Assembly (NCBI GenBank): GCA_963843145.1
Contig: CAWJJC010000015.1
Span: 18,082 to 82,081, forward strand
Origin: an uncultured delta proteobacterium
GTDB taxonomy: Bacteria > Desulfobacterota > RBG-13-43-22
DNA: 64,000 nt
Direction of reading: 5' to 3'
The translations under genes and the position numbers were made by a program. This document shows, piece by piece, positions 17,344 through 40,015 of this stretch. Each line of letters begins with the position of its first letter. Position 1 is the first letter of the stretch. The notes beneath the pieces are model-generated. The model had not been told where the DNA came from. It ran no database searches and was given only the letters and a program-made list of their open reading frames with translations.

Positions 17344-18833
17344 CTATCTGTGAATAATGGGCAGATAATTTTTTGGAGAATTAAACACGTAGGCCGCTCC
17401 GGCGGTAAGAGCCGAATTGTCCCCCTGATTGCCGTTCACCCCCGTGGCGTTGCTGGCTTCACTATAGGCCCCGACGACCACCGTGTCCCCGGATATTGCC
17501 ACTGAAGTCCCGAAGAGGTCCCCCGCGTTGGTATTGGAGGCCTTGAGGTAGGCCTGCTGGGCCCAGACCCCGCCGCTGCGGACAAACACGTAGGCCGCTC
17601 CGGCAAAATTGGCCGAATTGTCCCCCTGATTGCCGTTCACCCCCGTGGCGTTGCTGGCCTCACCAGAGGCCCCGACGACCACCGTGTCCCCGGATATCGC
17701 CACCGAAGTCCCGAATGAGTCACTGGCGCTCGGTATTGGAGGCCTTGAGGTAGGCCTGCTGGACCCAGACCCCGCCGCTGCGGACAAACACGTAGGCCGC
17801 TCCGGCAATAAGTGGCCGAATCGTCCCCTTGATTGCCGTTCACCCCGGTAGCGTTGCTGGCCTCACCAGAGGCCCCGACGACTACCGTGTCCCCGGATAT
17901 CGCCACCGAAGTCCCGAATGAGTCCCCGGCCCCGGTATTGGAGGCCTTGAGGTAGGCCTGCTGGATCAGCGGGTCAATAGTCAGGGGGTAGACGGCCTGT
18001 CGGTCGTCTACTACGATCTGTACTCGGCTCCCCGCCCCTTCCAGCCGGGCCGGTACCCGGAAACCCCCGGCATCCACCACGGTCAGTTCCCCGTAGGTCA
18101 GCCGCACCCGGCCGTCCCGGTCGTGGAAGCTGACCTGTCGCCCAAGAGGATCCGCCTCCGGATTAAGCCCCCCTTGCACCGCCAGGGCCAGGGCCAGGGG
18201 CTGCTCGGCTCCCAAACCCGCGGGCCGTTTCTTCACCGTAAATCCCTGTTCCAGTCCTCGTTCCCCATTTTCAACCCATTCAATCAGGGACCCGTCCCAG
18301 CGGTAATATACTCGGTTGTTCTCCGCCCAGACCTGTCGCGGCGGTCCGGTCAACTCGATCGCTCCATACCGGACCAGTCGCAGACCCCATTTCCAACTTC
18401 CCTCCGCGGGCTGTATTTGCATTCCCCCTTTGGCAAAGGTCGACTGTAATTGCTGGCCTGGATTAAAGGATTGATAGGTCCCGTCTGAGGCCGCTTGGAC
18501 CCGATGCCGGTGAAGATCCATTTCCTTCTTAATGGCCTGCCACTCTCCAGCCTCCAGACCGGAAGGGACTTCCTCCGGCCCAAGCAGGCGGCTCGATTTT
18601 CCGGATAGGGCGGCTTCATTCTTCTCTTGAGCTTTTAGCACTTCGTTTCGGATAACGGATGTGTTTATCTTGGAAAACGAAGTCTTGACGGGAGGAAGAA
18701 GGTTAGCCGGGAGAGGAGGGGTTTGGACCATGGCGCTGGTTGGTGCTATGCCGGCCGTCAGCGGTAAAACCAGCCAGGTAACAGTTACCAGCAGGAAAAA
18801 CCCGAATAGACCAAAAAGACGGATCGTTTTCAT
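17344..18833 (-). CDS. Secreted FG-GAP repeat protein, frameshifted near 17810/17730; tail NYLPIIHR
   Basis: Signal peptide, YPLTIDP, three QQAYLKASNT..D.FGTSVAISGDTVVVGA repeats split over two ORFs. Confidence 0.82.
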
Positions 18834-19212
18834 ATTGCCTCCTGAAGCTAAAGGGTTGGGTCCAATTTACAGGTCGGAGGGAACCAGGCGCTCTTAGGAA
18901 TTATCATTACCTAAAAAGATATCGCCTGGGGGACAAGAAATAAATAAGGTAAAACCCCTATTTTAAGGAGTAAATCATTGTATTTTGTGTCCTCTTATTA
19001 CCTCGGCAAATAATAATATCAACTCCGAATTAGGCAATGATTAGAGATAGGTTGTCCTGGCTTCTCCCCTGGGAAAATACAGTTTTTCCCTTAATAAAAT
19101 ACGTTATTTACCCCATATTAATCTTCAATTTATTACTGTTTACTATGACCATGAAGGAGTAAAATCCAATTTCCGGTCAACCTCCGAGCATGGTCGATTG
19201 TTGAGGAGGTAT

Positions 19213-19490
19213 ATGATCTTGCGCAGCTTATTGGTTCGTCTATTGCTTGTGTTTGGCTTGACGCAAGCCTTGTGGCTGATGTACTCGCCAATTTTACCTG
19301 TCCAGGCCGGCGGTTTGGTCACCAATTGTGCCGACGACGGCCAATTCAGCAGCCTGCTGGCCGGCGGCGGGAACATTACGTTCGACTGCGGCACGGCGCT
19401 GCCCGACCGGTGGGTCCGGCCTGCGATATCGGCGCCGTGGAATATAGGGCGTTCTTACCCTGGCTTTATCTGCCCTTAATCTCAAAATGA
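19213..19490 (+). pseudogene. Internally deleted parallel beta-helix/choice-of-anchor Q protein; tail LYLPLISK
   Basis: Signal peptide + AGGGNITFDCG (as in the 28400 protein) joined out of frame to RPVGPACDIGAVEY..LYLPLISK. Confidence 0.7.
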
Positions 19491-19672
19491 TAAAGCCAGG
19501 TTCGCTGGTCAGGGCAATAGGCGATTTAATCCAAAAAAGTCGGTCTCGATTTTTCTCATCCCGAATTTCCTTATTTTCATCCATACCATATGGTGTCTTT
19601 ATCCCGGGTGAAAAAAGTTTATTAGCAGAGGACTGATCCTATCATCAACAGATCTTGTTCTGAAAACGAAAA

Positions 19673-22516
19673 GTGAAACATGAAAGGGAGGTTATCATGA
19701 GGCGATTTCGATTTCTGGGTGGTTTGACAATTTCGCTGGCCATAGCCGTCTATGCCTTGCTGTTCGGGAGAGTCCTTCCGGCAAGCGCCCAGGTCCCGGC
19801 CGGAACAATCTGGTTCGTCGACGACAGCATCAACGACGGACTGGCGGCGCATTGGAAATTCGATGAGGTAGGGGCCGGTACCGCGCTGGAATTCATCGTC
19901 GGCGCCGACGGGAGTCTGGTGCCCGGGGCCTCCATGGCGGCCAGTCCCCGGCCTCCGGTACTGTTTAACGATACCGCCTCTCTAACTTTGGATGGCGTGG
20001 ACGGTAGGGTCGATATCGCCGATAACCCTTCCCTCAATCTATCCGCCAGTTTCACTGTGGCCGCCTGGGTAAAACGCAACGCGATAAATGTCTATCATGC
20101 CGTCTACGATTCCGGCGAACAGGCCAAACACTGGTGGGTTTTCATCTCCGACCTGACGCAAGGCAACCTCCCGGGGCTGGGTGTGCGGGGAGTGACTGAA
20201 ATCTACGGCACGAAGCCGATTACCGATTTCGGCTGGCATCATATCACCGTGGTCAAGAATGGGGATACGGGCGCCAATGTGACCTTTTATATTGACGGAG
20301 TGGCGACGGGCGGGGGTTCAATAGGCGCTTTGACCCTGCCAAGCGGGGTCAAGCGGATCGGGGCTTTGTTGGACGGCAACTTTTCGGCGCATTTCGACGG
20401 CAATATCGACGACCTGCGCCTCTATAATCGGGCACTGAGCGCCCCGGAAGTGCAGCGATTGGCCCAGGGCCGCGGTTGCGTAACCGAGGGTACTGCCTGG
20501 TCTACGGCCTTTCGCGAATTGCAATGCGGTCTGAGCATGGCGGCCGCGGGCGACCAGATCTGGATCGGTGAGGGCCTATATACACCCGGAGTCAGCGCCG
20601 CGCAATCATTTATCCTGAAGAACGGGGTTGATATTTTCGGCGGTTTCCTGGGGCTTAGTCCCGGAGGAGGCGAAACCGACCCGGGCCAACGCCCGGCCTT
20701 CAATGCCGATGCCCCTCTGACCATTTTGAGCGGTGATGTGCTGGGCGACGATCTGCCGGCCACTTTTGCGAACTACGGCGACAACGCGTTCCATGTGATG
20801 ACCGCCGGCACCGGCGTATCCGCCTCCTTGGACCGCCTGGGGATCCATAGCGGTAGCGCGACCGGCGCCGGCCCTTCCGAAAACCTGGGCGGAGGGATGC
20901 TGGTCCAGACCGATGCGGGAACCATTCAGTTGACCGAAGTGGCCTTCTTTGCCAACCAAGCAACTTTCACCGGTGGCGGGTTGATGGCGCAAGCACCGGT
21001 CATTCTCAACCAGACGAGTTTTCTTAACAATAGCGCTCTATTTGGCGGCGGCATCGCAACCACAGTACCGCTAACCATTACCGGCGGACGGTTTAATAAC
21101 AACCGGGCCACAACCTTTGATGGCGGTGCCATCCAATCAACGGCCACGTCCGGCACCCTATCGATATCGCAGAGTACGTTTACGGGCAACGTGGCCGCGT
21201 TCTCAGGCGGTGCGATCATTGTGGGGTCGGCAGCGCTGAACATCAACCAGTGTACTTTTCAGGATAACCAAACGAATACTTTTGATGGCGGCGCCATCAG
21301 TACCTCGGGAGTCCTGGATATCCAGAACTCAATCTTCAACTCCAACACCGCCAGGCAATTTGGAGGGGCGGTATCGGGCTCAGGGGGCGGAATCACAGTT
21401 CAAGGCAGCCAACTGACGGGCAATCGGGTTTTGGGGGGCAACTGCTCCCCTGCTTGCAGCATCGGTGATGGGGGCGCCATCTTCGCCCCTGGCCCCCTTA
21501 CCGTTACCAATACAACCCTGACCAATAACTTTGCCAGGCTTAAAGGGGGTGCTATCTCTGGAAGGGGGGTGACTACGCTTAGTGACTCGCTGCTGACCGG
21601 TAATCAGGCCGGCACCCCGGGCGACGTGAACAACCCGGGCAAGGGAGGGGCGGTATATGTGACCGGAGAGGCCAGCCTCAGCAACAATGTGTTTGAACTC
21701 AATGCTGCCCAAAGTCCTGTCTCTGACGGCGGAGGCCTATTCGGGGAAAATGGGCCGGTGCTGTCAACCGGTAACCGTTTCAGCGGCAACTCCTCCACCC
21801 ACTTTGGCGGCGGGGCGCGCTTGCCGTCTGCCCAGGTCAAAGGCGACCGCTATTTGAACAACACGGCTGTATTTGAAGGCGGCGGGATCCTAGCTTCAGG
21901 CAACCTAACGATTACCCAAACGATTTTCGACGGAAATGCTTCCGACTTAAGCGGCGCGATTTCCGCCGCCGCCGGTCCGTCCGATCGCTCGCTACAGTTG
22001 AACATCGACAACTCGCTTTTCATCCGTAACCAGCGTCAAAGCATCGCCGGCGACGCTGACCTGCGTCTCTTCGATATCACCGGCAAGCTGGTGAATAATA
22101 CCTTCGCCGATCCCGGGTCGGCCGGCGCGCTTTCCCTCAAGGCCTTCCGCAGCGACCTTCAAGTTGAAAACAACATTTTTGCCCATTACGGAAATAGCAT
22201 CGATGGCGATACCGGACCTGGCGGTTTACCTGTCCAGGAAGACTACAACCTCTTCTTCAACGCTCCCTTGGGCCCCACCGTCACCTCCGGGGGCCACAGC
22301 CTGACCGGCAATCCCCTATTCGTCGATCCGGCGACTCAGAACTACCGTTTGGCCGGCGGTTCGCCGGCCATTGGGGCCGGCCTGGACTCAGCCCTTCCGG
22401 CCTCGATTTTGAATGATCTCTCCGGGGGATTGCGGCGAGTTGGGCCTATCGATATTGGGGCCTATGAGTCTCAGAATCTTTTGTTCCTGCCGCTTATTTT
22501 AAGAAACGCGTTTTAA
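19673..22516 (+). CDS. Secreted LamG-like jellyroll + parallel beta-helix (GGA[IV] repeat) protein; tail LFLPLILRNAF
   Basis: Signal peptide, AHWKFDE...IDDLRLYNRALS, many GGAI/FxxN repeats, DIGAYE. Confidence 0.88.
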   Translation: MKHEREVIMRRFRFLGGLTISLAIAVYALLFGRVLPASAQVPAGTIWFVDDSINDGLAAHWKFDEVGAGTALEFIVGADGSLVPGASMAASPRPPVLFNDTASLTLDGVDGRVDIADNPSLNLSASFTVAAWVKRNAINVYHAVYDSGEQAKHWWVFISDLTQGNLPGLGVRGVTEIYGTKPITDFGWHHITVVKNGDTGANVTFYIDGVATGGGSIGALTLPSGVKRIGALLDGNFSAHFDGNIDDLRLYNRALSAPEVQRLAQGRGCVTEGTAWSTAFRELQCGLSMAAAGDQIWIGEGLYTPGVSAAQSFILKNGVDIFGGFLGLSPGGGETDPGQRPAFNADAPLTILSGDVLGDDLPATFANYGDNAFHVMTAGTGVSASLDRLGIHSGSATGAGPSENLGGGMLVQTDAGTIQLTEVAFFANQATFTGGGLMAQAPVILNQTSFLNNSALFGGGIATTVPLTITGGRFNNNRATTFDGGAIQSTATSGTLSISQSTFTGNVAAFSGGAIIVGSAALNINQCTFQDNQTNTFDGGAISTSGVLDIQNSIFNSNTARQFGGAVSGSGGGITVQGSQLTGNRVLGGNCSPACSIGDGGAIFAPGPLTVTNTTLTNNFARLKGGAISGRGVTTLSDSLLTGNQAGTPGDVNNPGKGGAVYVTGEASLSNNVFELNAAQSPVSDGGGLFGENGPVLSTGNRFSGNSSTHFGGGARLPSAQVKGDRYLNNTAVFEGGGILASGNLTITQTIFDGNASDLSGAISAAAGPSDRSLQLNIDNSLFIRNQRQSIAGDADLRLFDITGKLVNNTFADPGSAGALSLKAFRSDLQVENNIFAHYGNSIDGDTGPGGLPVQEDYNLFFNAPLGPTVTSGGHSLTGNPLFVDPATQNYRLAGGSPAIGAGLDSALPASILNDLSGGLRRVGPIDIGAYESQNLLFLPLILRNAF

Positions 22517-22626: not shown

Positions 22627-24294
22627 GTGAATTTAAATCGGACGGAGGAAAGAAAGAAGATGATTGTAACACATTCCAGATACCCCGTACTTTTGATGAT
22701 GGGATTGATCCTGGTCATGTTTTGTTCCGCCCTTCCCCTCCAGGCCGCCACGAACGTCACCTTGAGTGGTGTCATGCCAGCTTGGGGGGATGTTAATTCT
22801 TTCCAGATCAGTTCGGATGGCCGGCGTGCCGTCTATCTGGCGGATCAGGATACGGATGGTGTTTTGGAGCTTTACAGCGTCTCATGGGACGGAAGTCCCC
22901 CGATTCGATTGAATCCCCTTCTTCCCACCGGCAGATCCATAGCCTCATTTCAGATCAGCCCGGACAGCCACCGGGTGGTTTATACGGCCGATCAAGATAA
23001 CGCAAAAATCGTCGAATTGTATAGTGTGCCTATCGCAGGCCCGGCGGCGGCCGGGATCAAACTCAATGGGCCCCTGGTCCTCAGCGGTAATGTTGTTCGT
23101 TTCATTATCAGTCCGGACAGCACCCGGGTGATCTATCAAGCCAATCAACAAACCGCAAGTTTCCTGGAATTGTACAGTGTACCGATCGCGGGCCCGGCGG
23201 ACGCCTGGATCAAGCTCAACGGCCCCCTGGTCCTTAATGGGAATGTTGTGGATTATAAGATCAGCCCGGACAGCAGCCGGGTGCTTTATCGAGCCGACCA
23301 GGTCACCAACGGCGTCTTTGAGTTGTACAGTGTGCCGATCGCGGGCCCGGCAATGGAAGGGATCAAGCTCAACGGTTCCTTGGTTACTAACGGGTCTATT
23401 TTTGAATTTCAAGTCAGCCCGGACAGCAGCCAGGTGGTTTATAGAGCGGACCAACAAACCGATGAGGTCTTTGAGCTGTACAGCGTTCCTCTCGCGGGCC
23501 CTTCATCCGCCGGGGTCAAACTCAACGGCTCCCTGGCCCTCAACGGAGATATTGTGGAGTTTCAGATCAGCCCGGACGGCAGCCGGGTGGTCTATCAAGC
23601 TGACCAACAAACCAATGATGTTTTTGAATTGTACAGTGTGCCGATCAAAGGCCCGGCGGACGCCGGGATCAAGCTCAACGGCCTCCCGAGTCTTCTGGGA
23701 TTTTTTTTGGTTTTTCAGATCAGCCCGGACAGCACCCGGGTGGTTTATCGAATCGACCACCAGACCAATGGTGTTTTTGAATTGTTCAGCGTGCCGATCG
23801 CAGGCCCGGCGGACGCCTGGATCAAGCTCAACGGCCCCCTGGTCCCCAACGGTGCGGTTCAAGAATTTCAGATCAGTCCGGACAGCGCCCAGGTGGTTTA
23901 TCGAGCCGACCAACAAACCCATAATGTCCTGGAATTGTACCGTGTGCCGATCAAGGGTCCGGCGGACGCCTGGATCAAACTCAACAGCCCCCTGGTCCTC
24001 AACGGTTCGGTTTTGGATTTTCAGGTAAGCCCGAATAGTAGTCGGGTGGTTTATAGAGCCGACCAGGAAACGGTTAACGCCCCTGAATTGTACAGTGTCC
24101 CGATGGGGGGCCCGGCGGCGGCCGGATTCAAGCTTAACAGCTTTCTGGTTCTCAACGGGAGTGTCACGTCTTCTTACCAGATCAGCCCGGACAGCGGGCG
24201 GGTGCTTTATATCGCGGATCAAGATACCTATTCTGTATTTGAGCTTTTTATGACCTCCAATTATCAACTTTACTTGCCTCTGATGCTCAGATAA
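22627..24294 (+). CDS. Secreted beta-propeller protein with ten ~51-aa repeats; tail LYLPLMLR
   Basis: FQISPDSxRVVYRADQxTxxVFELYSVP repeats (TolB/PD40-like); signal peptide. Confidence 0.88.
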   Translation: MNLNRTEERKKMIVTHSRYPVLLMMGLILVMFCSALPLQAATNVTLSGVMPAWGDVNSFQISSDGRRAVYLADQDTDGVLELYSVSWDGSPPIRLNPLLPTGRSIASFQISPDSHRVVYTADQDNAKIVELYSVPIAGPAAAGIKLNGPLVLSGNVVRFIISPDSTRVIYQANQQTASFLELYSVPIAGPADAWIKLNGPLVLNGNVVDYKISPDSSRVLYRADQVTNGVFELYSVPIAGPAMEGIKLNGSLVTNGSIFEFQVSPDSSQVVYRADQQTDEVFELYSVPLAGPSSAGVKLNGSLALNGDIVEFQISPDGSRVVYQADQQTNDVFELYSVPIKGPADAGIKLNGLPSLLGFFLVFQISPDSTRVVYRIDHQTNGVFELFSVPIAGPADAWIKLNGPLVPNGAVQEFQISPDSAQVVYRADQQTHNVLELYRVPIKGPADAWIKLNSPLVLNGSVLDFQVSPNSSRVVYRADQETVNAPELYSVPMGGPAAAGFKLNSFLVLNGSVTSSYQISPDSGRVLYIADQDTYSVFELFMTSNYQLYLPLMLR

Positions 24295-24858: not shown

Positions 24859-26193
24859 ATGAGAGCGCTTTCAGAATATGAGTGCTCAACTGATTGGATC
24901 TGCGCCATGCGATCAGACAAATGCTTAGCTCGAACCAACCGCCAGGCATGGGTTGCGGGCCTTTCCTTTTTTCTGATTCTGCTAATGATGGGTGCGAATA
25001 TCGGCATAAGCCAGGATCGTATCGCGGTTGCCGCACCGTCGCCAAAAGTGATATCCATCTGGGGGGGAGCGAGATCCTCGATCGTCCTAAAATCGGACGG
25101 TACAGTTTGGGACTGGGGCATGAATTGGCATGGCAAATTGGGCGATAACAGCGTTTCGATTTTCTCGGATCAGGCCGACTTCGCCGGTGGCAGCAATGAT
25201 CGCTTTACGCCGATTCAAGTCCACGGGCCAGGCAATGTGGGTTATCTCGATTCGATTACGGCGATCATGGGCGGCGAGAGCCATAGCTTCGCCCTGAAAT
25301 CGGACGGCACGGTCTGGGCCTGGGGTTGGAATACCATGGGTCAGTTAGGAGATGGAACCTATACGGACCGATATACACCTGTCCGAGTCAGCGGATTATA
25401 CTCAATCCTCGCCCTCGGAGGACGGGGGTATCACAGCCTGGCCCTCAGTTCGGACAGCACGGTCTGGAGCTGGGGATGGAATGCCGGTGGACAATTGGGT
25501 GATGGAACGACCATCAACAGAAACCTGCCTGTCCAGGTCATTGGACTGAGCGGAGTGTCGATGATTAGCGGAGGATATAAGCACAGCCTCGCTTTAATGG
25601 CTGACCAGACATTACGATCCTGGGGATTTAATAACGACGGCCAACTGGGGGATGGATCCAAGAACAATAGTGATACCCCTGTCCAAGTCAGCGTATTGAC
25701 CGATATTATCCAGGTCTCCAGCGGATGGAATCATAACGTGGCGCTCAAATCAGACGGCACGGTCTGGACCTGGGGTTGGAATTTCAATGGCGAATTGGGG
25801 AACGGGACCTCCTCAGATAGTAATGTGCCTATCCAGGTCAGCGGGTTAAGCAACATGATCGCAGTATCTGGCGGGGATTTTCACACTGCAGCGCTCAAGT
25901 CGGACGGCACGGTCTGGACCTGGGGATGGAATTACGATGGTCAATTGGGAGACGGGACAAATACGGAACGACATACTCCCGTCCAGGTTGTCGGATTAAG
26001 TGATGTGATCGCTATTGCCGCCAGAGACCACCATAACCTGGCGATCAAGGCAGATGGTTCAGTCTGGGCGTGGGGCTGGAATATCAATGGTCAGTTGGGC
26101 GATAACACGACTACCGACAGAAATATTCCCGTACCAGTCATTTTCTGGAACAATTGGAACAATCAAGTCTATTTGCCGCTCGTTGTGAGATGA
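24859..26193 (+). CDS. Secreted RCC1/BLIP-II repeat protein; tail VYLPLVVR
   Basis: About seven [25 protein letters not shown] repeats. Confidence 0.92.
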
Positions 26194-28399: not shown

Positions 28400-30104
28400 A
28401 TGAAAGAGGAGCGCTGGAGGGATAGCAGGAATCTAAAGGTGCTGATTCAATCAGGATTATTGATTCTGGTTGGAACGATCCTAATTACAGTAACTGCCCA
28501 GGCAGCGGGGGTCGTCGGGACCGGTACACCGGCCAGTTGCACTGAGACAGCGCTGGATACCGCGCTGGCGGGCGGTGGCGCTGTGACCTTCAATTGCGGC
28601 GCGTCGCCGTTCATCATTATTGTCACCGGGGTCAAGACCATCAGCAGCGACACGACCATAGACGGTGGAACCTTGGTCGCGCTCAGCGGCGGGAACGTGA
28701 CGCGCGTGCTGGACGTAAATGCCGGCGTAACCCTCACCCTCAATAACCTCACGGTCCAGAATGCCTTCCGGAGCCTGGGCGACGGCGGCGCGATCCAAAA
28801 CCTCGGTACGCTCAACATTACGAACTGTAAATTCCTGAACAACAAGACCACGTCGGCCTGGAGCGGCGGGGCGATTTTGTCACTGGGACCATTGAACATC
28901 ACCAACAGCGAGTTTGCTTTCAACGAAGGGGGGAATGGCGGTGCCCTCTACCCGCGCTTTTCTGCTGCGATCACGATGATCTCGGGCAGCTCATTTCATG
29001 ACAACTCGACGTCGAACACGACGGACGGCTGGGGTGGCGCGATGCTGATCTGGGACGGCGCGCCGGTGACCGTACAGAGCAGCCAGTTCATCCACAATAC
29101 CGCCCGCTGGGGCGGCGCGTTATACGTCTTCCCCAACAGCAGCTTGACCCTGACCAGCAGCTTGTTGGCCAATAACGTGGCCGACGGCGGCCCCAGCGCG
29201 GACGGTGGCGGCGGGGCCATCTACAACAATGCCCACCTGGTGCTGGACGCTACCACGGTGGAGAACAACGTCGTGGTGGTGCCTCCGGGTTTCGGCTTCC
29301 CCGGGATTCGCGCCGGCGGCGCCATTTGGAACAGCACCTCCGGTTCGATCCAGATGAGCGGGGGCGCGCTGCGAGCAACCACGCCCTGCACGGTGGCGCG
29401 CTGTACAGCCTCGGAAACGCCGCGCTGGTCATGGCCACACTGGCGGATAACCTGGCCGGCAGAGGCGGCGCCATCGAAAATAGTAACAATTTGGCCAACA
29501 CGCTGACCATCAGCGGCTCCACCTTCAGCGGCAACCAGGTTTCCTTCGCGATTTATCCCGCCGTCGTTACCCCTCTGGGCAGCGCCATCTTCAACACGGC
29601 GCGCCTCGACATCACCAACAGCACCCTCAGCGGCAACAGCGGCAAATGGCGCTGCAAGAAGACAACAGCGTCATCACGCTTACCAACGTCACCGTGGCGC
29701 AAAACCCGAATGGCGGCCTCGGCTCTGATCAGAGCCCCAATACGAGTCAGGTCCGGTTGTTCAATACCTTGCTGGCCGGCAACGGCACGCACAACTGCGG
29801 ATCGATCCTGTTCGGGACGTTCACCAGCCAGAACAGCCTTTCGAGCGATAACAGTTGCCTAACCTGGGTCGGCAGCCAAAACCAAAACGGCATCGATCCG
29901 CTGTTGAGCCCGCTGGGCTTTCACGGCGGCCCCACCCTGACGCACATGTTGGCCGCCGACAGCCGGGCGGTGGACGCCGGTGCCAACTGCCCCGCGCTGG
30001 ACCAGCGCGGGGGCCTGCGGCCTGTGGGTGCCGCCTGCGACATCGGCTCGGTGGAGTATGGAGCGCTCTTGCCATTGCTTTATCTGCCGTTAATCTCGAA
30101 ATGA
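28400..30104 (+). CDS. Secreted parallel beta-helix protein with choice-of-anchor Q domain, two frameshifts (~29372, ~29645); tail LYLPLISK
   Basis: Three overlapping ORFs; the intact reading is recoverable from the duplicate at 38393-39145; GGPTLTHML..SRAVDAG..DQRG..CDIGSVE. Confidence 0.85.
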
Positions 30105-30217
30105 TTAATCCAGCTCGGTCAGATCTTCCCGTTCCTTGACACCTTTCCTCCAAACAGCCCCGAATAAATTTTCGCGTTGTTACCCGACTAGGGATCGTTG
30201 ACCGGACACTCGATCCT

Positions 30218-33214
30218 TTAGTTAAACAGCAGGGGGAGCCATATATTGGGATTCCAGACCACTGTAGCTGAACTGAAGAATTGAACCCCCGCCGCTACGC
30301 CGGTGGCTACAATCCTGTCCGTTCCCGGTGTCCCGTCATTCGAGTAGGTGAACGCCGCCCGGCCGTTGCTGTCGGTCGTGCCGGAACCGCCCTGGTCGCT
30401 GTTGGGGCCGGAGAGAATGTTGAAAAAGACCGGCACGTTCGCCAGCGGAGCACCGTCGGAGGTGATCGTCGCCGTGACCGTGTGGGGGCCGCTGGATTTG
30501 TTCGAACTCTCCTCGGGTGAAAGCGTGCTGATCAAGGTCCCCGCCGGGGGGGGACCGCTGGTCACCGTAACGCACCGAGAAAACTCCGAGGTACTCCCCT
30601 GGGGATCCGTAGCCGTGGCCGTGATGACCTGACCCGGGGAGACGGTGTCAAGCAGGGTCGCGCTGAAAGCCCCGGAGCCTGCGACGTCAGTCACTACAAG
30701 GGCTTCGCCCAGGAAAGTCCGGCCCTCGCCGAAACCCGAAGGGCTGCAAGACGAATTGGAGAAGAACTCCAACCGGAACTCGGTGTCCGGGGTGCTGTTG
30801 ATCATGCCGGCGATGGCGATGCTGTTCACAATCGTGGCGCTCGCCAGATCGGGATAGTTCTGGCCGGAATTGGCCCGCACGTCGGCGTCCAGGGGATCAT
30901 TGGTGTCTACACCCGTCGGAGGAGAGAGGTCGATGGCCGCGGTGCTGCCATTTTCAAAGATGCTGTTACGGGAAATCGTATTTCCCGTGCCCGTACCACT
31001 GATGAACACCCCTCGCAACGCGTTAAACGCGATGACATTGTTTTCAACCCTGTTCTGATCGGCGCTGGAGAGCAAGATCCCCGTATCCCCGTTTCCCCGG
31101 TTCAGGGTCCCGGTCAAATCCGTGCCGATCAGGTTATTCCAGACGAGATTTCTTCTCGCCCCCGGCCCCAGGGCCACCCCGGCCACGGTGTTGCCCGAGA
31201 TGACATTCCGATCCCCAGGATCAGGACCACCGATCCGATCATCCTCGCCAAATACGCCGATCCCCAGCCGATTGGGTATGACCGCGCTGCCCGGCGTAAG
31301 GCCGATCAGGTTCCCGGAGATCCAGTTCCCGTTTCCGGTCACCTGAATCGCGCCAATATTCGCGGAAGGCTGATGGTTCAGAAAGGCCAGGCCTTGAACA
31401 GTAATGTTATCCCCTGATAAATTTAACATCGGGGACTCAAGCCCGGCGCCATCCAAGCCGATTTTGACCACGCCGTTGAAGCCGGTCGATGCGGTGTTGG
31501 GGGCGGCCCCCGGCTGGGTAAAGCCGGCGATCACCGCAGGCTGGGTGATGGTCACCACACCTGCGAGGTCAATAACATGAGACTGGGAGCCGGGGATGTC
31601 AAAGAAGATCCGGTTCTCTACCGCAGGATTTTCGGTGCCGTTGGAGTCTAAAACAGCCTGGGCAAAGCTGCCTGGGCCGGTCGGGTTGGTATTGTTGACA
31701 CCGAACTCCTGGCCGGCTCGCGCCAAGACGGGGGAAAACTCCGAGGTATCCGGGATCGTTCCGGCGCGGGTGGCTGTGGAGCTGATCCAGTGCCCCTGGG
31801 AGGCGGGCAGGGCCGCTTCAAAAACCGCCTCGCCCTTCCCGTCGGTCGTTACGTCGATGGTCCCGAGATAAAACTGGCCCTCCCCGTAGCCGCTCGGGTC
31901 CCGGACCTCGTTTCCGTAAAAATCGATATGAAACGGGGTATTGGGCACGCTCTGGAGCCCCCCCTTGACCTTGAGGCCTGTACCGCTCGCCTCAACGCTG
32001 GAGAGGATCGGGAAGTTCTGGAGCCGGTTCGGGCCTTTGTCCTGGTCAGGGGCCGGGTCGTTTTTTGTTACCCCATCTGCTCCAAGGTCAATTCCGAGGC
32101 CTCCGTTTTTGAAGATGCGGTTTCCCCGAATCGAATTTCCGATGGATTCGAGGATCGAAAGGATCACACCTGATTCCAAATCATAACCACTCGATTTGGT
32201 AACGTTAATACCACTACCACCATTATTCGCGATGATGTTTCCTGCTCCCGGTGTCGTCTGGCCGACAACAGAGTTTGTCTCCCCCTCGAATATTATACCG
32301 GGTCCGCCATTCCCCAAGGCACCGGTGCCAGACACATCCGTACCGATGAAGTTGCCGGTGATCACTCCCTCCGTTCCAATTTGTGACCTGATACCTTCAT
32401 ACTCATTTCCCGAGATCACATTTCGTTGTTCGGGACTCGTTCCGCCGATTGATGTCCCAGTAGCCCTAAATATGGTAATCCCTACGCCATTTGCCAACTT
32501 GGCACTGCCTGTCTTGTCGGTTCCAATGAAATTCCCCTCGATCTTGGTCCGATTAGCGTTAGAAATTGTAATTCCCGTTCTGGTATTTCCAGAAATAACG
32601 TTCCGTGATATCGGGTCCGCTCCTCCAATAATGTTGGACGAAGAATTCTCCTGGATTTCAATGCCATATCTATTGCCCATGTCCGCGGAGCCGGAAGCAG
32701 GAATGCCGATGAAATTGCCGGAGATCACATCTCGGCCGGCACCCGCCAGAATAATTCCGATAAAACTAAATCCGTAGATCGCTAATCCCTTCACTTTGCT
32801 ATCTGCCGCAACGATATTTAAACCACTCGCAAGCCTACCTGCCAGGGAACCGTCCAATTCGATCTGCAATACCGCATTGTTGCCGGTGACCTCGGTGTTG
32901 GGGCTGGCCCCGGGCTGGGTGTAGCCGTCGATGGTTACCGGGGAAGTGATGGTTGGCAACGGACTTAAGGGCTTGATCGCATGGGGGCCTGCACCGGGTA
33001 TATTAAAGGCAATGGTGTCCGCATTCGTCACGGTCAGATTCGCCTGTTCAATGGCGTCCCTCAGTGACCCCGCCCCGGCATCGTTGGTATTGATTACGGT
33101 GAAGGTTTCAGCGTGGGCCGTCAGCGTTGCCGCGACCAGGCCCAGGCCCAGCAGCAACCCCTGCACGATTCTTTTCCCCAAACTTCCTCTCATTCTGAAG
33201 ACTTTGGTGTTCAT
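30218..33214 (-). CDS. Large secreted parallel beta-helix protein with duplicated module and C-terminal Ig-like (Big_1) domain; tail IWLPLLFN
   Basis: Signal peptide ..AHA, TFTVINTNDAGAGSLRDAI, two TSEFS-ending modules, TTDSNGRAAFTY. Confidence 0.87.
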   Translation of the reverse strand: MNTKVFRMRGSLGKRIVQGLLLGLGLVAATLTAHAETFTVINTNDAGAGSLRDAIEQANLTVTNADTIAFNIPGAGPHAIKPLSPLPTITSPVTIDGYTQPGASPNTEVTGNNAVLQIELDGSLAGRLASGLNIVAADSKVKGLAIYGFSFIGIILAGAGRDVISGNFIGIPASGSADMGNRYGIEIQENSSSNIIGGADPISRNVISGNTRTGITISNANRTKIEGNFIGTDKTGSAKLANGVGITIFRATGTSIGGTSPEQRNVISGNEYEGIRSQIGTEGVITGNFIGTDVSGTGALGNGGPGIIFEGETNSVVGQTTPGAGNIIANNGGSGINVTKSSGYDLESGVILSILESIGNSIRGNRIFKNGGLGIDLGADGVTKNDPAPDQDKGPNRLQNFPILSSVEASGTGLKVKGGLQSVPNTPFHIDFYGNEVRDPSGYGEGQFYLGTIDVTTDGKGEAVFEAALPASQGHWISSTATRAGTIPDTSEFSPVLARAGQEFGVNNTNPTGPGSFAQAVLDSNGTENPAVENRIFFDIPGSQSHVIDLAGVVTITQPAVIAGFTQPGAAPNTASTGFNGVVKIGLDGAGLESPMLNLSGDNITVQGLAFLNHQPSANIGAIQVTGNGNWISGNLIGLTPGSAVIPNRLGIGVFGEDDRIGGPDPGDRNVISGNTVAGVALGPGARRNLVWNNLIGTDLTGTLNRGNGDTGILLSSADQNRVENNVIAFNALRGVFISGTGTGNTISRNSIFENGSTAAIDLSPPTGVDTNDPLDADVRANSGQNYPDLASATIVNSIAIAGMINSTPDTEFRLEFFSNSSCSPSGFGEGRTFLGEALVVTDVAGSGAFSATLLDTVSPGQVITATATDPQGSTSEFSRCVTVTSGPPPAGTLISTLSPEESSNKSSGPHTVTATITSDGAPLANVPVFFNILSGPNSDQGGSGTTDSNGRAAFTYSNDGTPGTDRIVATGVAAGVQFFSSATVVWNPNIWLPLLFN

Positions 33215-33518
33215 CCGGGCACCCTCACTCTTTGAATAAATCCTATGTTCCGAAGTGGATTGATTGCCGCCAATTTCAGGACAAGCGTAACTAATTGTAC
33301 TTGTACGCTCATCCCCCCTTTTTAAAAAATATAAGTATTCTTTTTTAAGTTGGCCAGCAAAATCCACTTTTTTAGGGGCAGTTTCGCCCTTATATACGGA
33401 ACGCCTCCTAATATTAGGTTGTTTTTAGTGCCCCCCAAGTTGAATATAAGGGAATTTTAACAAGAAAATACAGGGTATCCCTTATTTTGATTAAGGGAAA
33501 AACTCTTATATTCTAATC

Positions 33519-33610
33519 TAGGGACGGTGAATCCTCGAGACCAGGGTGCCATCCCCTTGCGCTTTATGACCCAAACGGGAGGAGTGTTCCTTCCCTTGAT
33601 TTCTCGCTGA
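33519..33610 (+). pseudogene. 3' remnant of the 39404-40015 gene (tail VFLPLISR)
   Basis: Near-identical to 39921-40015; the 5' part is deleted directly after the shared promoter region. Confidence 0.8.
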
Positions 33611-33834
33611 TCGTTAAATGACCTCAATTGCCGGTAACTTCTACGGAGGAAGACCCTTGGGTTGGCAGGTTGGACCAACCGTAATCGGCGGTATTAATAT
33701 CTAGTGGAAATTATTAACCCTTAAGGGCAAAACAACATTAGCAGGTTCAATTAAGCCTAACGTAAATTTCGGTTTTGCTCGGTAATCGGAATTTGGGCTA
33801 GTGTACTCGCTATAAACCTTTACCAGGGCTTCGG

Positions 33835-35472: not shown

Positions 35473-37275
35473 ATGAGAGATAATGAAAAGACCAAAGCCC
35501 AACTGATCGAGGATTTGAATGGTCTGCGCTTGAGAGTTACTGAACTGGAAAAGTTTGAAATCGAGCACAAGCAGACCGAAGGAGCTATTAAGAATTTAGC
35601 GAAGTTTCCCTCCGAAAACCCTAATCCTGTACTACGTTTGAGTCAAGAGGGTATTATCCTGTTTGCTAACGAGGCCAGTAAGGCCCTGCTCCGAGATTGG
35701 CAGTGTGAGGTGGGCGGCTATGCTCCTGCATTTTGGCACAATTTAGTTATTGAGGCCTTCAAAGATCAATCTCCGAAAACCGTTGATGTCCAATTTGGTG
35801 ATAAGTTTTATATGTTTGATATCGCCCCTGTCCCCCATACTAACTATGCCAACCTTTACGGTCGTGACAACACCGAACGCCAACGAGCGGAAGTTGAAAA
35901 TAGGCGCAACGAGGCACGGCTGGAAAGCTTGCTGAAGATATCCCAGTATCGCGCCGACTCGACTCAAGAGCTTCTGGATTTCGCCCTTGAAGAAGCCATT
36001 GCCCTCACAAACAGCAAGATCGGCTATGTTTACTTCTATGACGAGACCAAGAAAGAGTTTATTCTCAACACCTGGTCCAAAGAGGTCATGAATCAGTGCA
36101 CCATTGCCGAGCCACAAACTCTCTATCACCTCGATAAAACCGGGATCTGGGGAGAGGCCGTGCGGCAGGGTAGACCGATTATTCTCAATGATTTCCAGGC
36201 AACCCATCCATTAAAAAAGGGATACCCTGACGGCCATGCGCCCCTCTACAAGTATTTGACCGTTCCCGTCTTTTCCGATGACCGCATCGTGGGAGTTGTC
36301 GGCGTGGCCAATAAAGAAACGGACTATAACCCCTCCGATGTGCGCCAGCTCACCCTGCTCATGGACTCGGTCTGGAAAATCTTCGAACGCAAGCGGACCG
36401 AGGAGGCACTGCGAGAAAGTGAGCAGCGCTACCGCAGTTTATTTGAATCGATGGACGAGGGATTCGCCCTTTGTGAGATGGTCTATGACGTAGTCGAGGG
36501 CAAGCCCATAGACTTCCGTTACCTGGTCGTCAACCCCGCCTTCGGCAAGCTGACCGGCCTACCGGTCGACCAAGTCGTAGGACGAACGGTGAAGGAAGTG
36601 ATCCCGGGAATTGAGTCTTTCTGGATTGAGTCTTTCGACTGCGTGGTGCAGAGCGGTCGGGATGAAAGGTTTTCCAACCCCGTGGCGGAACTGGGAAAGG
36701 AATATGAAGCCTACGCCTGGCGCTCGGATGTCGGGCGGTTCGCGGTTGTCTTCAGCGACGTAACGGAGCGCAAAAGGGCCGAGGAAGCTCTCAAGGCATT
36801 GTCTCTTAAAGATGAACTGACCGGCCTGTATAACCGCCGGGGTTTCTTTACTTTGGCCGAACAGGGCTTGAAGGCGGCCCAACGGATGGGAATAGAAATG
36901 CTGGCCATTTTCGGAGACTTGGATAATCTGAAATATATTAATGATACCTTCGGCCATAAAGAAGGCGACCAAGCCTTGGTAGAAACATCACAGATACTTA
37001 AAGAAACCTTTCGGGAATCGGATATCATCGCCCGCATAGGAGGGGATGAATTCGTCATTCTGGCCATGAACAGCTTTAAGACCTCGGCCGAGAAACTGAT
37101 CAACCGGATCGAGCAGGCCTTGAATGACCATCCTCTCCAAAAAAAAGGCCCCTATAAAATCTCTCTAAGCTTAGGTATTGCCTGTTTTGATCCCCAAAAC
37201 CCTTGCTCCTTAGATGTCCTCCTGGCCGAGGCCGATAAGATGATGTATCAGAATAAACAAAAGAAGAATAGATAG
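35473..37275 (+). CDS. Diguanylate cyclase (PAS-GAF-PAS-GGDEF)
   Basis: DELTGLYNRR, RESD I-site, GGDEF. Confidence 0.93.
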   Translation: MRDNEKTKAQLIEDLNGLRLRVTELEKFEIEHKQTEGAIKNLAKFPSENPNPVLRLSQEGIILFANEASKALLRDWQCEVGGYAPAFWHNLVIEAFKDQSPKTVDVQFGDKFYMFDIAPVPHTNYANLYGRDNTERQRAEVENRRNEARLESLLKISQYRADSTQELLDFALEEAIALTNSKIGYVYFYDETKKEFILNTWSKEVMNQCTIAEPQTLYHLDKTGIWGEAVRQGRPIILNDFQATHPLKKGYPDGHAPLYKYLTVPVFSDDRIVGVVGVANKETDYNPSDVRQLTLLMDSVWKIFERKRTEEALRESEQRYRSLFESMDEGFALCEMVYDVVEGKPIDFRYLVVNPAFGKLTGLPVDQVVGRTVKEVIPGIESFWIESFDCVVQSGRDERFSNPVAELGKEYEAYAWRSDVGRFAVVFSDVTERKRAEEALKALSLKDELTGLYNRRGFFTLAEQGLKAAQRMGIEMLAIFGDLDNLKYINDTFGHKEGDQALVETSQILKETFRESDIIARIGGDEFVILAMNSFKTSAEKLINRIEQALNDHPLQKKGPYKISLSLGIACFDPQNPCSLDVLLAEADKMMYQNKQKKNR

Positions 37276-37318: not shown

Positions 37319-38387
37319 AACGTTGGTTCTAGATTGCATATTTCTGAAGGCAGAGGTCAGGCATTTCCGGAGAGTTTGCCAACCGGGTAACGGATGAGGT
37401 CGTTGTTCCTAAGTAGCGCGCTACTTCCGCCCCTGAATATCCCCATCTCTTGACCGCCAGTTGACAGAAAAGTCTTCGGGTCTTTACTACCTTGGCGGCA
37501 CGGCTTCCGGACCGAACCAAATCCCAATCGGTTCCTTCCGACCGGGAAACCCGGGAGGCCAGTGTCCCCAGTTCAACCTTCCGAGCTTTGAGCCGGAGAG
37601 TTTCCTCTAACCGTTTCTCCGCCTGGGACATGACCTCCTCAATGAACTCGCCGCTCCCCAAAATCCGCTCATCCGAGGCCATCCGCAGTTCATGCCGCCG
37701 CAGAGACAGCACTTGCGACCAACCTCCGGCGCTGCGGATCAAACCCCCGCCAACTAAGTCAGGCCGCCGACCCATCGGGATCCCGTCGGCCACAAATCCC
37801 TCATATTCCGCTCGCGCCTTCCGCAATTTCGGACTAAAAATGGAAAGGATCGATTCGGTCTCCTGCCAGTCCCGCCCTACTTTCCCCATCAAAACCGAAT
37901 GCCCGCTCCAAGGGTATTCCTTTAATTTAGGCAAATCAGCCACCACTCCCCCCCGCAGAGGATTGAGATGAATGTAGCGCGTTAACTCCAAAAGGTAGGC
38001 CTCTTCTTCGCACACGATGGATTTATAGCGATTCTGGAAAAGGTGACCAAACCGTTTATGCCGTCGGTTGAAGTTTACTACATACCCGGTCATCAATTTT
38101 CTCATATTCGTGGAGAGAGGCTGAAGACCGGTACGTACCAATAAATGCATATGATTGGGCATCAGCGCCCAGGCATAGACCACCCACGCCCCGGCGCGAG
38201 CCCTTTCCTCCAGACGGAACAGGAAATCCTCCCGGTCTTTATGATTTCGAAAGATTTTGGTTCTTTCTATCCCTCGGGCCATGACATGGTGCAGAACCCC
38301 CGGTGCGTCTAATCGAGCTTGTCTGGGCATATTCAGAATTTATTACACTTCCCCTACTCTGTCAATGCAATTTAGAACCAACGTCCC
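37319..38387 (-). mobile_element. Y1/RAYT-like element copy 1 with ~20-bp terminal inverted repeats
   Basis: aacgttggttctagattgca (37319-37338) and tgcaatttagaaccaacgtccc (38366-38387) flank the transposase. Confidence 0.8.
37329..38330 (-). CDS. HUH Y1 transposase (REP-associated tyrosine transposase type) with DnaA_C-like HTH
   Basis: MPRQAR, HHVMARG, MPNHMHLL (HUH), GHLFQNRYKS, YIHLNP. Confidence 0.92.
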   Translation of the reverse strand: MPRQARLDAPGVLHHVMARGIERTKIFRNHKDREDFLFRLEERARAGAWVVYAWALMPNHMHLLVRTGLQPLSTNMRKLMTGYVVNFNRRHKRFGHLFQNRYKSIVCEEEAYLLELTRYIHLNPLRGGVVADLPKLKEYPWSGHSVLMGKVGRDWQETESILSIFSPKLRKARAEYEGFVADGIPMGRRPDLVGGGLIRSAGGWSQVLSLRRHELRMASDERILGSGEFIEEVMSQAEKRLEETLRLKARKVELGTLASRVSRSEGTDWDLVRSGSRAAKVVKTRRLFCQLAVKRWGYSGAEVARYLGTTTSSVTRLANSPEMPDLCLQKYAI

Positions 38388-38392
38388 GTATT

Positions 38393-39145
38393 ATGAGTGG
38401 GGGCGCGTTGAGCAACAACCGCGCCCTGCACGGTGGCGCGCTGTACAGCCTCGGGAACGCCGCGCTGGTCATGGCCACACTGGCGGATAACCTGGCCGGC
38501 AGAGGCGGCGCCATCGAAAACAGTAACAATTCGGCCAACACGCTGACCATCAACGCCTCTACCCTCAGCGGCAACCAGGTTTCCTTCGCGATTTATCCCG
38601 CCGTCACCACCCCGCTGGGCAGCGCCATCTTCAATACGGCGCACCTGGACATCACCAACAGCACCCTCAGCGGCAACAGCGGCAGCACGGCGCTGCAAGA
38701 AGACAACAGCGTCATTACGCTTACCAACGTCACCGTGGCGCAAAACCCGAATGGCGGACTCGGCTCTGACCAGAGCCCCAATACGAGTCAGGTGCGGTTG
38801 TTCAATACCTTGCTGGCCGGCAACGGCACGTACAACTGCGGACCGATCCTGTTCGGGACGTTTACCAGCCAGAACAGCCTTTCGAGCAACAACAGTTGCC
38901 TAACTTGGGTCGGCAACCAAAACCAAAACGGCATCGATCCGCTGTTGAGCCCGCTGGGCTTTCACGGCGGCCCCACCCTGACGCACATGTTGGCCGCCGA
39001 CAGCCGGGCGGTGGACGCCGGGGCCAACTGCCCCGCGCTGGACCAGCGCGGGGGCCTGCGGCCCGTGGGTGCCGCCTGCGACATCGGCTCGGTGGAGTAT
39101 GGAGCGCTCTTGCCATTGCTTTATCTGCCATTAATCTCGAAATGA
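38393..39145 (+). pseudogene. 5'-truncated duplicate of the 28400-30104 gene (tail LYLPLISK)
   Basis: High identity to 29354-30104; begins immediately after the Y1 element end. Confidence 0.85.
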
Positions 39146-39403
39146 TTGAGCCGGATCGGTTAGATCTCCCCGTCCCTTGGCAATGAACATCAGCCGAAGA
39201 CGGCTCAGCGGCAACAAATCAATTGGTAATTGCTTTATTGCCACCTCCAACGGAACGCCCCCTAATATAGGTTGTTTTTACTGCCCCTCAAGGTGAATAT
39301 AAGGGAATTTTAACAAGAAAATACAGGATATCCCTTATTTTGATTCAGGGAAAAACTGTTATATTGTAATCCAGGGAATAAAAAATCAAAAAAGGAGAAT
39401 GCT

Positions 39404-40015
39404 ATGAAGAAAACTATGTGCCTGATCGCGAGTATTTTTTTGGGAATTGGAATTTTAGGGATTGGCTCCTACCCGAGCTTGGCCGCAGCACCCTCCTTGG
39501 CTTCCAGTGGAGACGAGGTGCCACCTGCCAAACCCATTGGTGCATCGAAATCGCTGGCCGCCTTGCCGGCACCTACCCCCGGGGAAACCTTGGTCTATTT
39601 TTTTCCATCGGACAATGATGCCACAGCTACTGTCATGTACATGTTAAATACCGATTCTGTTCCCCATACGGTCGCTTTGAGGGGGTATAGCCAAAACGGG
39701 GTTACGGTTTATTCCCTAAATATCGATATCGGCGCTACCAGCATGTTACGTCTGATCAGCGATTTGGTAGCGGCTAGTCCTCCACCCAGTTGGGCAGCCG
39801 ACTCTAATTTAGGCACTCTTGCTCCGATCATAACCAATTTTACCGATTTTACCTATTTTGCCAGTCTATCTCTGCCGAAAGGGGTATTGGTGGACGGATA
39901 TGTTATCTTTAACCCCGGTACAGGGACGGTGGATCCTCGGAAGGACCAGGGAGCAATCCCTTTGCGTTTTATGACCCAAACGGGTGGAGTGTTCCTTCCC
40001 TTGATTTCTCGCTGA
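39404..40015 (+). CDS. Secreted hypothetical protein; tail VFLPLISR
   Basis: AAGGAG RBS, signal peptide, Pro-rich linker. Confidence 0.8.
   Translation: MKKTMCLIASIFLGIGILGIGSYPSLAAAPSLASSGDEVPPAKPIGASKSLAALPAPTPGETLVYFFPSDNDATATVMYMLNTDSVPHTVALRGYSQNGVTVYSLNIDIGATSMLRLISDLVAASPPPSWAADSNLGTLAPIITNFTDFTYFASLSLPKGVLVDGYVIFNPGTGTVDPRKDQGAIPLRFMTQTGGVFLPLISR

Follow-up and report, generated by a model that had tools for sequence, protein, structure and literature searches.

Short C-terminal signals set the fate of bacterial surface proteins, and the LPXTG motif, PEP-CTERM and the domain of type IX secretion systems (T9SS) have each opened a field. Sortase-type transfer signals must be C-terminal and need a leaving group. 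In Braun's lipoprotein, the C-terminal lysine is linked to peptidoglycan by L,D-transpeptidases. Here we describe an eight-residue tag present in a 64-kb stretch of DNA (the window, meant at its full length throughout) on contig C15 of the genome G000, a metagenome bin of 5.35 Mb in 32 contigs that is 97.9% complete with 6.9% estimated contamination. The consensus of the tag is hydrophobic-[Y/F/W]-L-P-[L/I]-[I/V/L/M]-x-[K/R]. It ends about 30 proteins of at least 12 architectures, marks about 1% of the genes of G000, and probably docks its carriers in the cell envelope or holds them there. Its host, a sulfate-reducer-type bacterium of the Desulfobacterota, is diderm.

A conserved tail at the ends of proteins

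The core [YFW]LP[LI][ILVM] matches nine open reading frames (ORFs) of at least 60 amino acids in the window (regex). It lies two residues before the stop codon in eight of them and five residues before it in the ninth, and these ORFs contain no other match. The absence of the tail from non-secreted neighbours, stated in an earlier note, rests on this same search. A tenth tail, which ends at 33610, belongs to a 39-codon remnant whose final 20 residues are those of the protein ending at 40015, as six-frame translation shows. The tails read NYLPIIHR, LYLPLISK (three times), LFLPLILR followed by NAF, LYLPLMLR, VYLPLVVR, IWLPLLFN and VFLPLISR (twice). All ten had been listed in an earlier note based on the letters of the window, and regex search and six-frame translation recover every one of them. 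The most deviant is IWLPLLFN (30218-33367), with Trp as the aromatic residue and the basic residue missing. Codons differ between unrelated tails (e.g., TAT CTG CCC ATT ATT, TAC TTG CCT CTG ATG, and TGG CTC CCC CTG CTG), so conservation is at the level of the protein and not of a DNA element; a DNA-level repeat or recombination site as the origin of the tails is thereby ruled out.

The tails are not independent of each other, because several belong to duplicated, truncated or frameshifted copies. One choice-of-anchor-Q gene end accounts for the tails at 19490, 30104 and 39145, which are its paralogous copies; the tails at 33610 and 40015 form a duplicate pair that lies within segmental duplications. 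The earlier description of ten unrelated proteins therefore has to be reduced to six independent families plus duplicates and remnants: FG-GAP, PMP/choice-of-anchor-Q beta-helix, PD40, RCC1, beta-helix/Big_1, and one protein without a known family.

Genome-wide, the core was counted as [YFW]LP[LIVM][ILVMF]. Stop-to-stop ORFs of at least 80 amino acids (n=24,936) contain 213 core matches. Counted from the end of the ORF, offset 2 has 34 of them, offset 3 has six, offset 4 four and offset 5 three. From the ORFs of at least 120 amino acids, a greedy choice without overlaps gave a set of 4272 that covers 81% of the genome; it has 24 cores at offset 2 against 0.23 expected from the internal rate (Poisson p ~5e-40). 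This set includes 34 tail ORFs; two chance-like ones (histidine kinase, C5:39187) were left out and the remaining 32 were aligned.

The aligned tails define the consensus. Position -1 is L, I or V in 29 of 32, the aromatic position is Y in 19, F in 12 and W in one, and the L and P that follow are invariant (32/32 each). Position +3 is L in 29 tails and +4 is I in 26, while +6 is R in 16, K in 11, N in three and H in two, i.e. basic K/R in 27 of 32. Zero to three further residues follow the basic position, and in most tags none.

Carriers of the tag and evidence for export

The carriers in the window, with the tools that identified them, are as follows.

17344..17808, minus strand: ORF for the C-terminal part of an FG-GAP repeat protein, closing with NYLPIIHR-stop, the tail being encoded at 17347-17370 (regex; PF14312 FG-GAP_2, E 1.7e-23)
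17637..18833, minus strand: upstream overlapping ORF of the same FG-GAP gene (ORF list; FG-GAP_2)
19272..19490, plus strand: 72-codon remnant with a choice-of-anchor-Q end and LYLPLISK (regex, translation)
19673..22516, plus strand: signal-peptide protein of 947 amino acids with Laminin_G_3, PMP repeats and choice-of-anchor Q, tail LFLPLILR then NAF
22627..24294, plus strand: PD40 beta-propeller protein of 555 amino acids with signal peptide, tail LYLPLMLR (regex, Pfam, heuristic)
24859..26193, plus strand: RCC1-repeat protein of 444 amino acids with signal peptide, tail VYLPLVVR (regex, Pfam, heuristic)
28400..29506, plus strand: N-terminal part of a PMP/choice-of-anchor-Q gene, with signal peptide and PMP beta-helix (translation; Chlam_PMP)
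29646..30104, plus strand: C-terminal part of the same gene, with choice-of-anchor Q and LYLPLISK (NF041518, 74 bits; regex)
30218..33367, minus strand: beta-helix (NosD/Beta_helix) protein of 1049 amino acids with a Big_1-like Ig domain, tail IWLPLLFN (regex, Pfam/NCBIfam, heuristic)
33491..33610, plus strand: 39-codon remnant ending VFLPLISR, a duplicate of the end of the 39404-40015 gene (six-frame translation; repeats D13/D14, 91-93%)
38303..39145, plus strand: 5'-truncated PMP/choice-of-anchor-Q gene of 280 amino acids, tail LYLPLISK (regex; NF041518, 71.6 bits)
39404..40015, plus strand: signal-peptide protein of 203 amino acids without a known family, tail VFLPLISR (regex; no Pfam/NCBIfam match)

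Several of these genes are interrupted or repetitive. The FG-GAP gene contains a direct repeat of 77 nucleotides (17530-17606 and 17732-17808, 99% identity) and was probably split by a frameshift within the near-identical repeats. The PD40 gene holds seven repeats of 153 nucleotides. At 28400-30104, the N-terminal part of the gene and the tail-bearing end are in different reading frames, and the segment 29376-30113, which includes the C-terminal part 29646..30104, is duplicated at 38416-39154 with 94-96% identity. A 96-nucleotide repeat family (D12) links the 19490 remnant to 30018-30113 and 39059-39154 (80-81% identity). The truncated PMP gene at 38303 adjoins an IS200/Y1-type transposase gene (37329-38330, minus strand) with a REP_Tyr_transpos match. 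That some tails follow a choice-of-anchor-Q domain, as proposed earlier, is borne out by the NF041518 matches listed above and by a further one of 27.3 bits in the 19673..22516 protein, whose signal peptide was called by heuristic. None of the curated Pfam or NCBIfam models spans the tail in the 13 window proteins scanned.

Outside the window, the tag is carried in G000 by proteins with DUF7948 and SBBP, BNR/sortilin, Metallophos, fn3, Flg_new_2 and DUF4394/DUF6923 domains, and by further PMP proteins. A proteome-wide search for the motif together with a test of its enrichment in secreted proteins, which the earlier note had proposed, was carried out, and the motif is enriched among ORFs with a heuristic signal peptide. 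A signal peptide without further helices is present in 16 of the 34 tail ORFs, and three more have a signal peptide plus a helix (19/34 with any), compared with 544 of 4238 background ORFs (odds ratio 6.0, p 1.4e-6). The remaining 15 tail ORFs have no signal peptide; all nine that were inspected begin within extracellular-type repeats or domains, and are therefore C-terminal fragments. The motif thus behaves as had been suggested, as a portable tag at the protein level on signal-peptide proteins of many architectures, on the evidence of regex, Pfam and enrichment alike.

The carriers are spread over 13 contigs, including the three largest carrier-bearing ones (786, 778 and 486 kb). Their GC content of 0.557 does not differ from that of the genome (0.550, p 0.32), which rules out a foreign base composition.

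A number of gene arrangements accompany the carriers. At L009:828-2587 (C27) and L013:2018-3532 (C2) there are paralogous cassettes in which an Lcl_C (DUF1566) protein is followed by a signal-peptide protein of 180 amino acids, and the latter ends ...GVVTDF..[YF]LPL[IV]L[KR]xS in both cassettes. Phage-integrase-family genes are found between or beside PMP carriers at L010:6285-7001 (C20), L013:12448-13287 (C2) and L016:5912-7051 (C10), where they may drive rearrangement or variation of surface genes. At L014:1335-4759 (contig C5), a tag-bearing PMP-type ORF is preceded by another ORF, and about 0.9 kb upstream of the latter there is a PilX_N minor-pilin-like gene.

The end of the 39404-40015 gene lies in a second segmental duplication (33415-33678 and 39268-40083, 91-93% identity), and a third (35471-36994 and 40186-41709) is 98-99% identical. 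Duplicated along with the tag genes, at 97-99% identity, are a GAF-PAS-GGDEF diguanylate cyclase gene (35471-36994/40186-41709) and part of a PAS histidine kinase gene; the stretch 34785-34882, duplicated at 40077-40174, belongs to the same cyclase/kinase duplication. The second copy of the cyclase gene consists of two ORFs, 40188-41225 and 41325-41990. The cluster is flanked by genes of aromatic-compound metabolism, i.e. a UPF0261-family gene (3062-4201) and a 4-hydroxybenzoyl-CoA reductase alpha-like gene (8487-10778).

Copies behind the signal peptide and at a domain junction

The strict eight-residue motif occurs away from the C-terminus in five copies among the 4272 ORFs. Three of these lie directly behind a predicted signal-peptide site, in one GDSL lipase and two proteins without a known family. 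One is found at residues 208-215 of a reprolysin-like metalloprotease, at the junction between pro-domain and catalytic domain (the latter starts at residue 218). The fifth lies inside a transporter helix and is probably due to chance. A looser scan gave 11 N-terminal candidates among 953 signal-peptide ORFs, two of them probably helices, against a rough chance estimate of about three.

The N-terminal copy of the GDSL lipase is conserved. Here the motif occupies residues 27-34 and the Pfam domain begins at residue 44. It is kept by 18 of 30 homologues (regex), with several more carrying near variants such as LYFPLILR, whereas in the two most distant homologues (34-35% identity) the signal peptide runs straight into the domain. 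Among 40 relatives, the lipase is found in G001, G003, both genomes of the sister genus (g2) and one genome of a tag-poor genus (g4). The copies recovered from the host genus (G000, G001 and G003) and from g2 have the tag or a near variant, in contrast to the g4 copy, which lacks it. Between G000, G001 and G003, the tag-bearing lipase orthologues share 67-72% identity and keep an intact motif. One Anaerolineales protein likewise has the motif right after its signal peptide.

Structure models were obtained for both placements. For the 592-residue PMP/choice-of-anchor-Q carrier on contig C20, AlphaFold2 (32-sequence alignment) gave a mean predicted local distance difference test (pLDDT) score of 92.1, with scores below 50 for residues 581-592, which hold the tag. 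The N-terminal tag of the GDSL lipase is likewise unpacked, with residues 16-33 below 50. The tag is unpacked in both models, which suggests an exposed, separate module at either end. In some Chloroflexota homologues (L027, L073), a Pro/Thr-rich linker stands between the last domain and the tag, its length ranging from about 30 residues to over 100.

Distribution of the tag and exchange with Chloroflexota

The 592-residue carrier has 6892 homologues at E < 1e-5. Among the best 120 of these, 90 end in the tag (loose regex) and all those named after an organism are from Chloroflexota (Anaerolineae, Promineifilaceae, Thermoflexales and Roseiflexaceae); the majority of homologues are metagenome proteins without an organism name, so that the statement on Chloroflexota refers to the named ones. 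The earlier note had pointed to similar tails in this phylum, and these homologues bear this out. Judged by sequence, the tag is the same one that ends many secreted proteins in a subset of Chloroflexota. The RCC1 protein gives a similar result on a smaller scale: 12 of its 120 nearest homologues are tagged (regex), including most of those at 59-70% identity, and more distant ones end in T9SS domains or in membrane helices (helix-plus-basic anchors).

A survey of named genomes comprised 87 ORFs, from 78 loci and the G000 paralogues. The tag is present in 21 of 53 rows from Chloroflexota, in none of 21 from eight other named phyla, in both rows named 'delta proteobacterium' and in all eight G000 paralogues. 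Choice-of-anchor-Q homologues of the other phyla end differently, with Cys-helix-RRRA (Sandaracinaceae), with a helix and an Arg run (Planctomycetota) or with short acidic tails.

As a DNA proxy for the tag, the back-translated tag plus stop codon was used, with the reversed pattern as control. A narrow version of this pattern, applied to 41 relatives, gave 37 matches against 5 control matches in G000, 16 against 2 in G001, 11 against 1 in G002, 8 against 5 in G003 and 9 against 1 in G007, where the excess is weak; the remaining relatives, including G004, are at background. A broad version was run on 301 genomes of the host phylum (199 genera), and gave 40 against 5 in G000 and 14 against 4 in G003. 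The next largest excess in the phylum is only 8 (G296, 9 against 1), so that only the host genus stands out. Within the phylum, the tag is confined to this genus and, in part, its sister genus. Nine of 91 Chloroflexota genomes exceed the control by at least 10 in the broad scan, the largest values being 26 against 3 (G342) and 33 against 11 (G041), and most others have nearly no excess. No other genome scanned with the broad pattern has as many matches as G000.

A quick maximum-likelihood tree (LG+G4) was computed for the 87 rows; it uses the 420 residues that precede the tag, leaves out the columns of the tag itself and has branch support from the Shimodaira-Hasegawa-like approximate likelihood ratio test (SH-aLRT) only. 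The PMP sequences of the host genus fall at several places in this tree. One pair lies within a clade that is otherwise from Chloroflexota and has 100% support, a G003 sequence and one from Anaerolineales form a pair (support 100), and one host-genus sequence is sister to Caldilineaceae sequences (support 93). Forcing the ten sequences of the genus into one clade, a constraint chosen after the tree had been seen, costs 224.6 log-likelihood units (approximately unbiased test, p 0.0001); the backbone is poorly resolved and one long-branch pair was flagged. We infer that cargo genes have been exchanged repeatedly with Chloroflexota, as the beta-helix genes appear to sit among Chloroflexota homologues. 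The direction of transfer is read only from how the family is distributed, which is common in Chloroflexota and here restricted to a single genus. The carriers are accessory genes: the Metallophos protein has no orthologue in 40 relatives.

Identity of the host

The host genome encodes BamA (TIGR03303, 680 bits), and the cell is therefore diderm; the Gram-negative-type host that the earlier note had surmised is confirmed. A ribonucleotide reductase on contig C22 falls in a 90%-identity cluster with a protein named Desulfobacterota or Thermodesulfobacteriota bacterium, and the 4-hydroxybenzoyl-CoA reductase-like gene of the window in one with proteins of Deltaproteobacteria and Desulfobaccales bacterium. 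The tag is found in two independent assemblies of the host genus, G001 and G003. Contamination of the bin by Chloroflexota contigs is ruled out by these two assemblies, by the clustering of the flanking genes and by the spread of the carriers over 13 contigs.

Search for a partner or processing enzyme

Pfam searches with 141 ORFs near 14 further tag loci in the genome, and with 20 more unknown ORFs, revealed no enzyme or transporter that recurs. When 389 ORFs taken from 78 loci in other genomes were clustered all against all, no neighbour family was present in more than five loci. Two untagged genes within the window cluster were considered as partners and rejected: a secreted protein of 202 amino acids (26221-26829) occurs in 40 relatives only as a fragment in G003, and a DcrB-like protein (27013-27693) is found among the same relatives only in tag-poor G012.

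Known processing enzymes fared no better. Sortase (PF04203) has no match in G000, with a positive control in three Gram-positive genomes. Exosortase (PF09721) occurs in G000, in G001 and in 12 tag-poor relatives, and was not found in three tag-positive genomes (G002, G003 and G007); it is unfit as the enzyme for the tag because its distribution does not follow that of the tag. Three other ORFs of G000, on contigs C3 and C4, match TIGR02595 (PEP-CTERM), and none of them is a tag carrier. The native exosortase locus (C3, about 5-23 kb) contains the exosortase (C3:5079-5615), PEP-CTERM ORFs at C3:9532 and C3:23261, and a caspase-like Peptidase_C14 (C3:19875-20705), and the same pairing of exosortase and Peptidase_C14 is seen on contig C6 of G001. 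Peptidase_C14 was rejected as the tag enzyme in view of this location and because it was not found in G003. Peptidase_C25 has no match in G000, and the control genomes were likewise silent. A retropepsin-like aspartyl protease gene (Asp_protease_2, L009:5303-5896, C27) lies in a tag-rich region; it was seen at one locus only and is probably incidental.

Possible function of the tag

The reading that we favour, with about an even chance of being right, is that the tag is a docking or retention peptide for Sec-exported proteins, which came with cargo genes exchanged with Chloroflexota and was kept in the host genus. Repeated exchange of such genes would have brought the tag into the genus. Export and removal of the signal peptide would leave it displayed at an exposed, flexible end, where a putative envelope component (a protein or a layer) could recognise it non-covalently at whichever end it is displayed, and this recognition would keep adhesin-like and hydrolytic proteins at the cell. 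A sortase-type cut and transfer is probably not to be expected: we take the tag to be read rather than cut, because the chain usually ends right after the K/R and the motif is conserved at mature N-termini. The proposal of a strictly C-terminal sorting system with a dedicated enzyme, made in the earlier note, is not favoured, as the motif is also conserved after the signal peptide. A more specific version is possible but doubtful, namely that the tag is the address label of an enzyme-free retention system, read at either end by one envelope receptor or layer and acquired from Chloroflexota with dozens of cargo genes.

Several observations weigh against a docking or retention function. A partner for the tag was not found, with no conserved neighbour in 14 own or 78 foreign loci, and the two untagged genes of the cluster do not track the tag among relatives. 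About 13 of the 32 tail ORFs kept are fragments, which could mean decay of little-used imported genes. The diderm nature of the host poses the question of how carriers would reach the surface. Genes and signal peptides were called by simple heuristics of our own and not by a trained predictor, and the loose N-terminal count is weak on its own, since about three candidates are expected by chance. A tag of six hydrophobic residues might also score as disordered in AlphaFold merely through its shortness.

Among the other explanations, a true sorting signal, which a sortase- or exosortase-like enzyme would cleave so as to join the protein by a covalent bond to wall, lipid or glycan, is unlikely. 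The tag does occupy the slot that LPXTG, PEP-CTERM-like, MYXO-CTERM-like and T9SS signals take in homologues, it often follows choice-of-anchor Q, with Pro/Thr linkers before it in some proteins, and its L-P and basic end resemble a tripartite signal minus the helix. However, the substrate lacks a membrane helix by which it could be held, there is little or no leaving group, transfer at the conserved N-terminal copies would attach only a few residues, and the enzyme searches speak against it (sortase not found in G000, mismatched distributions of exosortase and Peptidase_C14, no conserved neighbour). It is likewise unlikely that the tag is a self-sufficient interfacial anchor, in which the aromatic-Leu-Pro-hydrophobic stretch dips into a leaflet or hydrophobic layer, with the basic residue bound to anionic head groups. 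Such an anchor would fit placement at either end, in any host, as well as the spread across phyla and the absence of a linked gene. In the literature passages available, the literal peptide FLPLI appears only as the N-terminus of membrane-active temporins of frogs, an analogy and not a homology. Yet six or seven residues partition weakly (a rough estimate from hydrophobicity scales), the basic residue is often missing from N-terminal copies, and the invariant Pro and strict L-P order (32/32) look more like specific recognition than general hydrophobicity.

That the motif is a recognition or cleavage site of a maturation protease, marking boundaries of pro-peptides or modules and with the C-terminal copies as trimmed ends, we consider quite unlikely. 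The copy at 208-215 just before the reprolysin catalytic domain would suit such a site, and so would the N-terminal copies, which lie like short pro-peptides between signal-peptide site and domain start; but most copies are at the extreme C-terminus, where cleavage would remove 0-3 residues or the tag alone to no obvious purpose, and no protease tracks the tag. There is little chance that the tag, while working in its Chloroflexota donors, does nothing in the Desulfobacterota host and is mere baggage of horizontal transfer. Its cargo is accessory (the Metallophos carrier), many carriers are truncated or frameshifted with transposase and integrase genes beside them, and in the tree PMP sequences join those of Chloroflexota at more than one point. 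Against this, the tag is enriched in one of 199 genera with its top count in G000, it has been kept in diverged paralogues and orthologues of the genus and sister genus, the N-terminal form included, and carrier GC content equals that of the genome. A structural role as the last beta-strand, capping or closing the preceding fold, would be in keeping with the many beta-propellers and beta-helices among the carriers, folds that are closed by terminal strands; it is largely refuted, and very improbable, given at least 12 unrelated folds, the long Pro/Thr linkers, the N-terminal copies and the unpacked tag in two models.

If the tag is indeed a docking or retention peptide read by an envelope receptor, the contrast with tag-free sister genera would let the receptor be found by subtracting genomes, and a tagged diderm genus beside them is a practical route to the partner. 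A portable retention tag of eight residues would also be useful for surface display. In about one tenth of the sampled Chloroflexota genomes, the tag is on tens of genes per genome. Chloroflexota are abundant in sludge, sediments and soils, and their envelope is poorly understood.

Comparison with known systems

No description of the tag was found in the literature on Chloroflexi sorting signals, on choice-of-anchor domains or on the literal peptides, and the available passages of PMC13319060 make no mention of it. Together with the lack of a Pfam or NCBIfam model on the tail, this agrees with the earlier view of the signal as uncharacterised. New here are the diderm Desulfobacterota host, the near-confinement to one genus and the evidence that genes were repeatedly exchanged with Chloroflexota, along with the placements at the N-terminus and at a domain junction, two structure models and the exclusion of several candidate enzymes.

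The tag resembles LPXTG/sortase signals in being C-terminal on surface-type proteins, sometimes behind a Pro/Thr-rich spacer, with L-P and a basic residue near the end. It differs in that T-G is present in none of 32 tails, the basic residue is single, and the protein ends 2-5 residues after the core, leaving no membrane helix or charged tail to follow; there are also N-terminal copies, and sortase was not found. Like PEP-CTERM (and the related MYXO-CTERM and GlyGly-CTERM), it takes the position behind choice-of-anchor Q and comparable domains, and the host genome encodes one exosortase and at least three PEP-CTERM proteins. The tag has neither a helix nor an Arg cluster, and the exosortase distribution does not match it. 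GlyGly-CTERM/rhombosortase and MYXO-CTERM are further set apart by their motifs, as the tails have no Gly-Gly or Cys motif and no helix.

The C-terminal domain (CTD) of the T9SS (TIGR04183/PF18962, PorU) is, like the tag, a portable C-terminal address on unrelated secreted proteins, and RCC1 homologues carry it in the same place. However, the CTD is folded, about 70-100 residues long and cleaved, compared with eight residues for the tag. Neither TIGR04183 nor PF18962 matches the 13 window proteins, and a genome-wide search of G000 gave no match, as did the control genomes. The beta-signal of outer-membrane proteins has a terminal aromatic residue, usually Phe, whereas the tags end in R, K, N or H plus 0-3 residues; one ends in F, and the carriers have no barrel domain.

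Like the tagged proteins, Braun's lipoprotein is exported, has no C-terminal helix and ends in a basic residue; in the lipoprotein, this residue provides the attachment within a diderm periplasm. The basic residue of the tag can be followed by as many as three others, and the tag also occurs in N-terminal copies. Moreover, the predominance of Arg over Lys at this position (16 against 11) argues against a linkage to peptidoglycan of the Lpp type, as Arg is not linkable in that way. The tag thus falls outside the known schemes, because it lacks a membrane helix and would function from either end of a protein.

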